Positions 1-5,640 are shown, counted from the stretch's first letter. The stretch is 5,640 bases of DNA from an uncultured archaeon (GCA_964510585.1 CAZECW010000068.1:1-5640); one strand, 5' to 3'. Made by a program: numbers and translations. Notes: a model not told the origin generated them from the letters alone.

Positions 1-139
1 CAGCCCCCATGAGGGTGCCAACATAGACGCCGTTCCCTTTGAGGGAAGGGCGTGTTAACTGGGTGATGGCACACCCATTGCTTCGAAGGCGATGAGCCAG
101 AAGCAAGAATCTCCCGACTTTAGTCGCGGAGAGTGTCAA
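1..139 (+). mobile_element. Right end of an IS200/IS605-family (tnpB/IS1341-like) element; the rest lies upstream of the window
   Basis: GAAT (107-110) directly precedes an imperfect hairpin CTCC-CGAC-ttta-GTCG-c-GGAG (111-131), followed by AGTG and TCAA (136-139). GAAT guide, subterminal hairpin and TCAA cleavage site match the established right-end layout of IS608/ISDra2. No terminal inverted repeats are expected for this family. No tnpA/tnpB coding sequence is recognisable in the window, so autonomous versus non-autonomous status is unknown. Confidence 0.85.
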
Positions 140-159
140 AAACCTCCCCGTAGTTTTCG
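1..159 (+). ncRNA. Putative TnpB omegaRNA/reRNA (3' part of scaffold plus about 16-20 nt flank-derived guide); 5' end probably outside the window
   Basis: Stacked hairpins by eye: 27-53 (ACGCC/GGCGT + TTCCCT/AGGGAA), 60-77 (TGGGTG/CACCCA) and 111-131. TGGCAC (67-72, mostly loop) can pair with GTGTCA (133-138), giving a pseudoknot at the element end. It is established that TnpB omegaRNAs derive from the IS right end and take their guide from the flank (here 140-159, AAACCTCCCCGTAGTTTTCG). Expression is not shown. Confidence 0.65.
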
Positions 160-488
160 AATCCTATAACACCCTTAAAGGAACCGACGAAAACGTTAGC
201 CCAAGTAGTAATTATGAGTAATATTGGCAGTGAAAGAATAAAGAGAAACGCCATAAACAAGGTAATACCGGTAACCACAGGAACCACTAGATTACCAAAA
301 AGTTTCAAACCAGAGGAAGTCAACTCAAAGACCAATCCGTACCCTGTATAAAAACTAAAAGAGAACCCCAGCAAAACCTGATAAAGAACGAAGATAAGAG
401 GTATCAAAAACAGCACTGCAAAAGGTAAACCCAAAATACGTAACCTTCTTACCGCGCTTTTCGTATCCAAGTTCCGCCAAAAGATCAC
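120..488 (-). pseudogene. Membrane protein gene, probably truncated at the 3' end by the IS insertion (possible N-terminal part of a carbohydrate ABC permease-like protein)
   Basis: GTG start (486-488) with AGGTGA SD at 493-498. Long hydrophobic stretches (ILGLPFAVLFLIPLIFVLYQVLLGF; LVVPVVTGITLFMAFLFILSLPILLIITTW). Codon 117 straddles the IS junction (140/139). The final DTLRD and the TAA (120-122) lie inside the IS hairpin. Confidence 0.65.
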
Positions 489-4787: not shown

Positions 4788-4814
4788 CCTAGCTTTTTAG
4801 ATGCCTAGCTTTTT
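4788..4814. repeat. 11-bp direct repeat spanning the cooS stop codon
   Basis: CCTAGCTTTTT occurs at 4788-4798 and 4804-4814 (16-bp period). Confidence 0.6.
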
Positions 4815-5640
4815 TCTTTTCTCCTCTATGTGTGCCAATATGGCTTCCGCTGCTCTTACCGGATCTTTTTCCAAATTGAGTTGAGCGCCCGTTATTTGTT
4901 TCAAGTCCTGTGTTAACAACTTGACCAGGTTCGGCCCCCCGGTTACCGTGGGCACTGGGTTAACGTAGGTGAATAGTCCCAAGGCCAAGGCAAATATTGC
5001 GTCAATGGTTGCTTTTTGCTCCATGTATTCTGGCGCAACAGCTGCAACAGGTAGGTCTGGTAAGGGTACTCCCCCAAGCGCATTTGAGACCGCAGCAAGT
5101 AGGTCGGCCAGACGCCCAGTATCGGTGCAGGTGCCATAGCTCAGAACTGGGGGAATCTTTAGCTTTTCACAAATACTTCTCAGGCCCGGCCCCGCAAAAT
5201 CTTTAGCTTCTAATGTGCAGAGACCAGCTACCTGCATGGCTGCGTTTCCGCAACCCATGGATAAAACCAGAACATCACGCTTAATCAATTCCTTGGCCAC
5301 GTTCACACTGTGTACGTCCTGACCATAATCCCTGAGAGTGGTGCATGAAACAAGCCCTACAACCCCTCTTAATGTTCCATTTTTTATTGCTTCGAGAAGT
5401 GGGTCAAGAGTTCCTCCCAAGGCTCCAGAATGCTTTCTGTGGAGAATCCAACTAAAACTTCTTTCATGGGTAGGTTGGTTACTGGTTCGATGGTGGCTCT
5501 GCGTTCCTTGAAGTTGTCTATAGCCATTTGCAGTAGCTGTGCGGCCTGTTGCTCAGCTTTTTCGGGATCATAGTTTACCCTTTCTTTTACGCCCTCGAAG
5601 GCCACCAGTTCACTTACTGGTACCAGTTTGAACTTATACC
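4797..5640 (-). pseudogene. cooS: Anaerobic Ni-carbon monoxide dehydrogenase catalytic subunit, 3' part (about 280 aa visible), frameshifted at about 5423 (real lesion or sequence error); 5' part outside the window
   Basis: The upstream frame is open to the window edge (YKFKLVPVSELVAFEGVKERVNYDPEKAE...GFSTESILE). The downstream frame reads LGGTLDPLLEAIKNGTLRGVVGLVSCTT...LSMGCG...KIPPVLSYGTCTD...PEYMEQKA. Adding one G (GAG GCC TTG) restores the CooS-typical GFSxExILEALGG. Three C-cluster Cys motifs and the catalytic Lys motif are visible. Confidence 0.88.

Follow-up and report, generated by a model that had tools for sequence, protein, structure and literature searches.

Our analysis of the first 139 nt of a 5,640-nt contig (C68:1-5640, the whole of which is called the window below) indicates that they are the right half of a non-autonomous IS608-type mini-transposon (PATE/MITE), which would be served in trans by the TnpA of its autonomous parents and its guide-RNA scaffold by their TnpB; we put the probability of this reading at about 0.72. 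The contig belongs to a 3.78 Mb assembly (217 contigs) of a hot-spring Asgard archaeon (Freyarchaeota/Jordarchaeia) and begins inside a repeat, at about position 145 of a 283-nt element. The sequencing runs that match the window are hot-spring DNA metagenomes, and one metatranscriptome run (X11) contains 0.13 of 16 sampled window words. A first-pass annotation, made from this DNA alone, had described an intact-looking TnpB omegaRNA scaffold with a pseudoknot and a readable guide at the right end of an archaeal IS200/IS605 element, with the cognate tnpB, if present, just upstream.

The 283-nt mini-transposon is present in about 75-100 copies in this genome; a BLAST search of the genome gave 87 matches and a covariance model of the scaffold gave 83, far above chance. 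All 69 copies that have a complete right end finish at ...GAGAGTGTCAA, the TCAA of which ends at window position 139, and they diverge from the next base on, so the placement of the element's end at 139 and of the guide's start at 140 is correct. The end at TCAA given in the first-pass annotation is thus common to every one of these copies, and its assignment to the IS200/IS605 group (IS608-like) is borne out by them and by the signals and hairpins described below. The 26 internal copies with enough upstream DNA have only about 275-290 nt in common, without an ORF, and the copies are 93-100% identical, that is, young. Another copy, the first to be examined for a tnpB gene upstream of it, directly follows an MCM helicase gene and not tnpB. 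In dozens of cases a contig start or end lies about 139-141 nt inside the mini-transposon; the fragmentation of the assembly is largely explained by this repeat, since most contig ends fall in it.

In an alignment of 29 full copies the left part consists of variable flank, TTAC, the element boundary, AAAACCTTGGCGAGAAAG, a hairpin with arms CCCCCGAC and GTCGTGGGG, ATGAATCGCC, AAAAAG and CTTATTTG, and the right part consists of three scaffold hairpins (H1, H2 and H3), GAAT, a hairpin with arms CTCCCGAC and GTCGCGGAG, AGTGTCAA, the second boundary and again variable flank. The two subterminal hairpins are imperfect palindromes on the same strand (CCCCCGAC-TTTA-GTCGTGGGG at the left and CTCCCGAC-TTTA-GTCGCGGAG at the right in the 29 copies), and the element has no terminal inverted repeats. 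The left hairpin is preceded by AAAG and the right one by GAAT, and in the same alignment AAAG is matched with TTAC and GAAT with TCAA. TTAC stands immediately 5' of 68 of the 69 strict left ends (27 of 27 in a second count), and it would be the TAM that the first-pass annotation had proposed to look for at the left end. There is no target-site duplication, as the right flanks do not contain a repeated TTAC. A tnpA promoter-like box (CCAAAAAG + CTTATTTG) lies about 55-70 nt into the element. Directly 3' of TCAA, 41 of 69 copies have an A, compared with a genome A content of 29%, and this excess suggests an extended target preference, TTAC/A. An empty site was sought by aligning the contigs of four hot-spring DNA runs to the copy on contig C49, and in none of them is TTAC followed immediately by the right flank; the two flanking contigs of run X4 stop at the edges of the element and go on into unaligned sequence. 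The summed depth over the C49 element is 130-240x that of its flanks, a value that is not a copy number.

Table 1. Features of the window (positions counted from its first base)
Feature	Position	Strand	Remarks
Right 139 nt of the ~283-nt gene-less IS608-like mini-transposon (PATE/MITE)	1-139	+	At least 69 copies with the same end; internal copies 275-290 nt
H1, first scaffold hairpin	27-53	+	ACGCC.TTCCCT / AGGGAA.GGCGT; present in minimum-free-energy fold
H2	61-76	+	GGGTG/CACCC, loop ATGGCA; the loop is the source of the pseudoknot 5' strand
Pseudoknot 5' strand TGGCA	67-71	+	Partner 134-138, paired in 96-97% of cells
H3	78-106	+	TTGCTTC...GAAGCAA; present in minimum-free-energy fold
GAAT, DNA guide tetranucleotide for TnpA	107-110	+	Directly 5' of H4, at its foot
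H4, subterminal imperfect palindrome of the right end	110-132	+	In fold; near-identical hairpin at left end of full copies
Tail GTGTCAA	133-139	+	Pseudoknot 3' strand 134-138; TCAA cleavage motif/transposon-encoded motif 136-139
Predicted guide (flank DNA)	140-159	+	Predicted from position only; flanks differ in every copy
TTTT run	154-157		Candidate archaeal transcript terminator (could act as such)
Host membrane-protein ORF	123-488	-	No Pfam match; last 6 codons and stop supplied by the element
Prismane/hybrid-cluster-protein gene	4797-5638	-	Two overlapping frames: 5384-5638 (Pfam profile positions 295-347) and 4800-5420 (positions 346-512)

The minimum-free-energy fold of window 1-160 as RNA has -62.8 kcal/mol (z = -3.9), and none of 200 dinucleotide shuffles folds equally well. 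The three hairpins originally placed at 27-53, 60-77 and 111-131 are present, with slightly adjusted limits, as H1, H2 and H4 (Table 1), and a fourth (H3) had been overlooked; the GAAT and TCAA end signals of the first reading were also located. H2 is seen in the opposite-strand fold and in every relative, and the inner stem of H3 has a 4-nt deletion in the subfamily to which the window belongs (CTCC is present in most copies of the alignment). By homology to IS608, H4 is certainly the hairpin that TnpA would bind in single-stranded DNA, and it is also the last stem of the predicted RNA. An Rfam scan of window 1-160 (E <= 1) found no family match, a spurious miRNA at E 0.46 being the sole entry.

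Alignment to the IS copies on contigs C8 and C81 and to more than 20 tnpB loci shows that the scaffold is homologous to the 3'-terminal part of tnpB together with the IS right end; H1-H3 overlap about the last 35 codons of tnpB in these copies (...ALNIGA...NW[AV]MAHP...). Between the mini-transposon and the C8 IS, H1 has two double compensatory changes (ACGCC/GGCGT versus GTGCC/GGCAC), and among the relatives its stem sequence is wholly different, yet always pairs. The H3 helix of C81-type IS copies holds a coding insertion of about 50 nt. The H3 of the mini-transposon is closer to that of other IS subtypes than to that of the IS type encoding P0002 (the full-length cognate TnpB described below), so it is uncertain which TnpB would load the mini-transposon scaffold. 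The structure was scored, as five helices, on a MAFFT alignment of 24 sequences (A2). In it 79.1% of the cells are paired, compared with 40-48% when the partners are slid by 1-3 columns, and the covariation score is 0.288, compared with 0.09-0.14 for slid partners and with 500 shuffles of which none scores as high. Cells changed on both sides number 98 where 42 are expected. H2 is paired in 94.8% of its cells, with covariation (CG 12/UA 9 and GC 20/AU 3), H3 has both-side changes in six of its seven pairs, and H4 is 82% paired with both-side changes in six pairs. Relatives belonging to many archaeal lineages retain the four helices, and compensatory changes occur in them; part of this conservation may be at the protein level, because H1-H3 overlap the tnpB coding sequence in the autonomous copies. 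The first-pass description of the scaffold as intact-looking holds.

Within the genome, the 69 copies have 0.79 minor alleles per paired site and 1.85 per unpaired site, with hot spots in the H1 loop (38-41) and the interior of H3. Most stem changes found in single copies disrupt pairing, which is preserved in 7 of 39 changed cells; neutral decay following insertion would produce such a pattern. The retention of the scaffold could merely reflect recency, because the mini-transposon copies are so young.

The pseudoknot of the first-pass annotation, in which TGGCAC (67-72) would pair with GTGTCA (133-138), is present as complementarity over its full 6 bp, of which a conserved core of 5 bp (67-71 with 134-138) stands. 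The sixth pair, 72:133, was rejected: C72 also closes H2, so this pair competes with that helix, and it is not conserved, being usually C-A in relatives with an ATGTCAG tail. In A2 95.8% of the pseudoknot cells are paired, and pair 69:136 is G-U in 17 sequences, A-U in 3 and G-C in 3. In a model-based alignment of 63 matches (A3) 97.2% of 246 pseudoknot cells pair, as against 4-42% when slid; there pair 69:136 is G-U 40, G-C 5 and A-U 4, and pair 71:134 is A-U 43, G-U 2, C-G 1 and U-U 2, the C-G case being a both-side change in locus L122 (TGGCC with GGTCA). When the tails were permuted among elements, the observed pairing was equalled in 123 of 2000 shuffles, which is not a significant loss, because the pseudoknot varies so little. 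In a second scaffold class a TTGACAC loop is perfectly complementary to an identical GTGTCAA tail, and in the distant relatives L125-127 a GAACT loop pairs, by eye, with an AGTTC tail. The covariation that had been suggested as a check is therefore clear for the stems (the 98 both-side cells), and for the pseudoknot the complementarity is kept with thin covariation. There is a good probability that the pseudoknot is real, mainly from its conserved complementarity and by analogy, covariation alone being modest; it fits the published omegaRNA pattern in which the loop of the second hairpin pairs with a transposon-encoded motif (PMC12558985).

Both tnpA and tnpB, which the first reading proposed to look for upstream, exist in this genome, but elsewhere and not upstream of the window copy. 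Pfam searches gave five TnpB zinc-ribbon and four Y1 TnpA matches, the latter (Y1_Tnp, E about 1e-37) including matches on C7, C169 and C162. The parent IS type is split over contig ends: C169, C162 and C7 carry its left end, tnpA and the N-terminal part of tnpB (with a frameshift in the C7 copy), and the C-terminal part of tnpB is found with the right end on C8, C45, C54 and C152. An intact cognate tnpB was sought by assembling the contig ends of this genome, and amino acids ~200-285 are absent from the assembly. The ends of the mini-transposon are homologous to those of the autonomous tnpA-tnpB copies over about 66 nt at the left and 120 nt at the right. The left end of the parent IS is 90-97% identical to the first ~66 nt of the mini-transposon, through a box (CCAAAAAG-CTTATAGG) that lies about 45 nt before the tnpA ATG in the parent and resembles an archaeal BRE/TATA. 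At the right end of the parent IS, identity to the mini-transposon is 97% over the final 37 nt and 80% over the final ~95 nt. Because tnpA and tnpB are encoded elsewhere in the genome, any action of their products on the mini-transposon would be in trans.

The full-length cognate TnpB (P0002, 393 aa) adjoins tnpA on a metagenome contig and is 99% identical to the C169 fragment. It has OrfB_IS605 and Cas12f1-like_TNB domains and retains the RuvC-I Asp (YVDLGV) and the RuvC-III Asp (HRDV), and its RuvC-II motif is IIVGDL, with the Glu replaced by Gly. It agrees in this with the "RuvC-II rearranged" clades defined by Altae-Tran et al. 2023, which were predicted to be active via an alternative Glu and were experimentally untested in that defining survey (PMC10691335). 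The first-pass suggestion that the cognate TnpB could be an uncharacterised archaeal variant is supported to the extent that it belongs to this Glu-to-Gly class. In the metagenome copy with the intact cognate tnpA-tnpB (L103:1975-2000), the sequence after H4 reads GGGGAGTTATACG and not GAGAGTGTCAA; as the cleavage motif and the pseudoknot 3' strand are both lost, this copy may be immobilised. The element on C81 is more divergent and is complete from TTAC to TCAA, with a decayed tnpA. Its tnpB (L035:1318-2589, minus strand, which is C81:5075-6346) has a 424-aa frame that crosses the whole right end and stops just past TCAA; the RuvC-II of this TnpB reads VLGRL, without an acidic residue at or beside the position of the usual Glu, and the protein may be inactive or repurposed.

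The last 26 nt of the right end (the 3' half of H4 plus GAGAGTGTCAA) were letter-identical in at least 62 contigs (L041-L102) in an exact-pattern scan. The hosts, among the matches listed, include Bathyarchaeia, Methanomethylicia, Nitrososphaerota, Aenigmarchaeota, Freyarchaeota, Archaeoglobus, Methanoperedens and others as well as several bacterial MAGs, and among the same matches the module is joined to at least three unrelated upstream scaffolds. Since the same 26 nt are attached to unrelated scaffolds, it seems from these sequences that the TnpA-recognition module moves or persists independently of the TnpB/guide-RNA module. A search of 400 genomes of the phylum with the P0002 protein found matches in 27 genomes (30 loci), with varied right-end tails, and a further protein search in five other genomes added few new tail variants. 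In the relatives the guide and cleavage tetranucleotides covary, GAAT occurring with TCAA and GAAC with TCAG or CCAG. In IS608 the fourth guide base pairs with the fourth base of the cleavage site, so the switch from GAAT/TCAA to GAAC/TCAG is as expected.

The 283-nt family was sought in two congeners (one a complete genome) and found in neither; it is specific to this genome. One congener (G119) has its own family of about 205 nt with 47 matches (for example L139:1505-1712 and L135:1366-1571, the latter on the minus strand), arranged as TTAC, left end, CCAAAAAG-AGTTTAATAAG, H1-H4 and a GTGTCAA or GTGCCAA tail; in one copy with the GTGCCAA tail the G-U pair of the pseudoknot becomes G-C. The present genome (G000) also has a second gene-less, low-copy family of about 360 nt with its own TTAC, left end, TATA-like box and a scaffold with a long H3 (C58:28190-28557; C107:~6865-7233; C32:13043-~13410, minus; C21:~1-398; C167:4150-~4520, minus). 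Left end, promoter-like box and complete H1-H4 scaffold are present in all three families (283, ~360 and ~205 nt). The sequence they retain far exceeds the ends that a PATE needs; a Haloquadratum PATE of 52 bp appears to have been mobilised (PMC3119063).

We propose that the mini-transposon, in single-stranded DNA form, would be moved by Y1 TnpA acting in trans, along the "peel and paste" route of IS608. Transcription from the retained tnpA promoter-like box would yield an RNA of about 190 nt that runs through the scaffold and on into the flank, and the parent IS's TnpB (393 aa) would load this RNA in trans after its 5' end has been trimmed. The first ~16-20 bases of the flank (here 140-159) would then guide cleavage of TTAC plus flank, that is, of the excised or empty site, and homologous repair after such cleavage would restore the element, which would so be retained. 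The first-pass idea of a flank-derived guide aimed at the empty site agrees with the boundary in the 69 copies, which puts the guide, as judged from position, at 140 onward; at the window locus the empty site would read TTAC and then AAACCTCC...

The predicted guide lies within the membrane-protein gene of Table 1, and the predicted transcript would be antisense to it. This ORF has about 116 aa before the element, compared with open frames of 202-221 aa in homologues and paralogues in the genus, and because of this difference the gene has probably been truncated by insertion of the mini-transposon. The missing C-terminal part was sought beside a left end elsewhere in the genome and was not found. 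Farther along the window, the division of the Prismane gene into two frames could be due to a frameshift or to a tRNA-type mini-intron.

A simpler view of the scaffold is that it is a functionless relic, the element being merely a TnpA-mobilised PATE of which only the ends matter (hairpins, AAAG/GAAT and TTAC/TCAA), and H1-H3 and the loop-tail complementarity being undecayed leftovers of a tnpB 3' end in a recent burst. The 93-100% identity of the copies, the pair-breaking nature of most stem changes within them and the non-significant shuffle test of the pseudoknot all agree with this view, and since Haloquadratum PATEs go down to 52 bp (PMC3119063) a scaffold is not needed for mobility. It does not account well for the fact that three independently derived families keep the whole ~120-nt scaffold and the promoter box as opposed to ~45 nt around a hairpin, nor for the concentration of the among-copy variation in loops and linkers or the conservation of the scaffold, with compensatory changes, across distant elements, and we consider it unlikely. 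A different possibility is that the folded region acts as DNA or as a host regulatory RNA and not as a nuclease guide, either through single-stranded DNA hairpins that aid TnpA or through antisense silencing of the membrane-protein gene. H4 certainly is a DNA-level TnpA site by homology to IS608, and the predicted transcript is antisense to ORF 123-488; on the other hand we know of no part for H1-H3 in TnpA chemistry, the same scaffold stands beside about 80 unrelated flanks, and it is most closely related to tnpB 3' ends, all of which makes such a role highly improbable.

The first-pass version, in which the window copy is the right end of a full-length IS with its own tnpB just upstream of the contig start, draws on the fact that the contig begins inside the repeat, so that the DNA upstream of this copy is unassembled, and on the presence in the genome of autonomous copies with related right ends. 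However, window 1-18 matches the mini-transposon-specific sequence of all 29 aligned full copies and is unlike the stretch of tnpB that occupies this position in the autonomous IS, and all of the 26-29 internal copies are gene-less, with only about 275-290 nt in common. In addition, tblastn finds tnpB only at C81, C169, C7, C162, C8 and C204, never joined to the right-end subtype of the window. A tnpB upstream of the window copy is therefore very unlikely, and we have little hesitation in setting this version aside. The reading of a non-autonomous element with a trans-used scaffold can be carried further: the mini-transposon, and not the IS, might be the main user of RNA-guided homing here, with about 80 self-promoted guide cassettes served by a few trans copies of a thermophilic, RuvC-II-rearranged TnpB, and some guides might have been co-opted to act on host DNA. 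This extension is speculative, and we think it doubtful. If true, promoter-plus-scaffold mini-transposons would have arisen in the genus on three or more occasions, and such repeated origin would point to selection of guide-only elements as units; guides such as the one inside the membrane-protein gene might act on host DNA.

The family constitutes a natural experimental set, with about 80 guides, a ~120-nt scaffold that has a testable pseudoknot, a TTAC motif and a cognate TnpB. The latter belongs to a catalytic-site variant class without experimental test as of the 2023 survey (PMC10691335). The host is a thermophilic relative of eukaryotes, and the 26-nt right-end module recurs, in archaeal as well as bacterial lineages, with guide-RNA scaffolds that differ greatly from one another. 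Among known elements, IS608 of Helicobacter pylori has TTAC, with AAAG, as its target and left cleavage site and TCAA, with GAAT, as its right cleavage site. It lacks terminal inverted repeats, and each of its ends has an imperfect hairpin, on the same strand, whose loop is of the CTTTAG type. The mini-transposon has the same four signals and similar end hairpins (a likeness of features, not a comparison of sequences), but IS608 is autonomous (tnpA + tnpB), bacterial and has a TnpB with a typical RuvC, whereas the mini-transposon is gene-less.

Meers et al. (preprint 10.1101/2023.03.14.532601) state that PATEs "often encode omegaRNAs", which then have to be used in trans. Like the ISGst PATEs of Geobacillus stearothermophilus described there, the present elements are gene-less, have ends that match autonomous or TnpB-only relatives, and bear a guide-RNA scaffold at the right end, so that TnpA and TnpB would both have to act in trans. 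They differ in their archaeal (Asgard) host, in their number (about 75-100 copies, versus 47 IS elements with similar ends, "several" PATE-like ones included, in Geobacillus), in that the window family keeps the tnpA promoter-like box directly upstream of the scaffold, and in the rearranged RuvC-II of the cognate TnpB. The PATEs of Haloquadratum walsbyi (PMC3119063) are likewise archaeal, of high copy number (177-194 per genome) and derived by an IS605-type core deletion, and one of them, HqIRS71, keeps an extended terminal segment that includes C-terminal coding sequence of tnpB. They belong to a haloarchaeal host and a different sequence family and were assigned no RNA structure, pseudoknot or guide, because they were described (2011) before guide RNAs were known. 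The scaffold itself resembles the ISDra2 omegaRNA, as far as it is represented by the cryo-EM structures cited in PMC10097598, and the guide RNAs of Halobacterium salinarum (PMC12558985): it overlaps the tnpB 3' end and the right end, has a multi-stem fold and a probable pseudoknot between an internal hairpin loop and the sequence at the transposon-encoded motif, and would be followed by the guide right after the element's end. No sequence similarity to either was detected (there being no Rfam match); moreover, the TAM would be TTAC and not TTGAT, and in a PDB sequence search the C81 TnpB matched solved TnpB/Cas12f chains weakly (E about 1e-5). Gene-less IS605 derivatives (PMC3119063) and the principle that such elements carry guide RNAs used in trans (10.1101/2023.03.14.532601) are thus already in the literature, and the window element is a real, well-preserved example of this already described kind.
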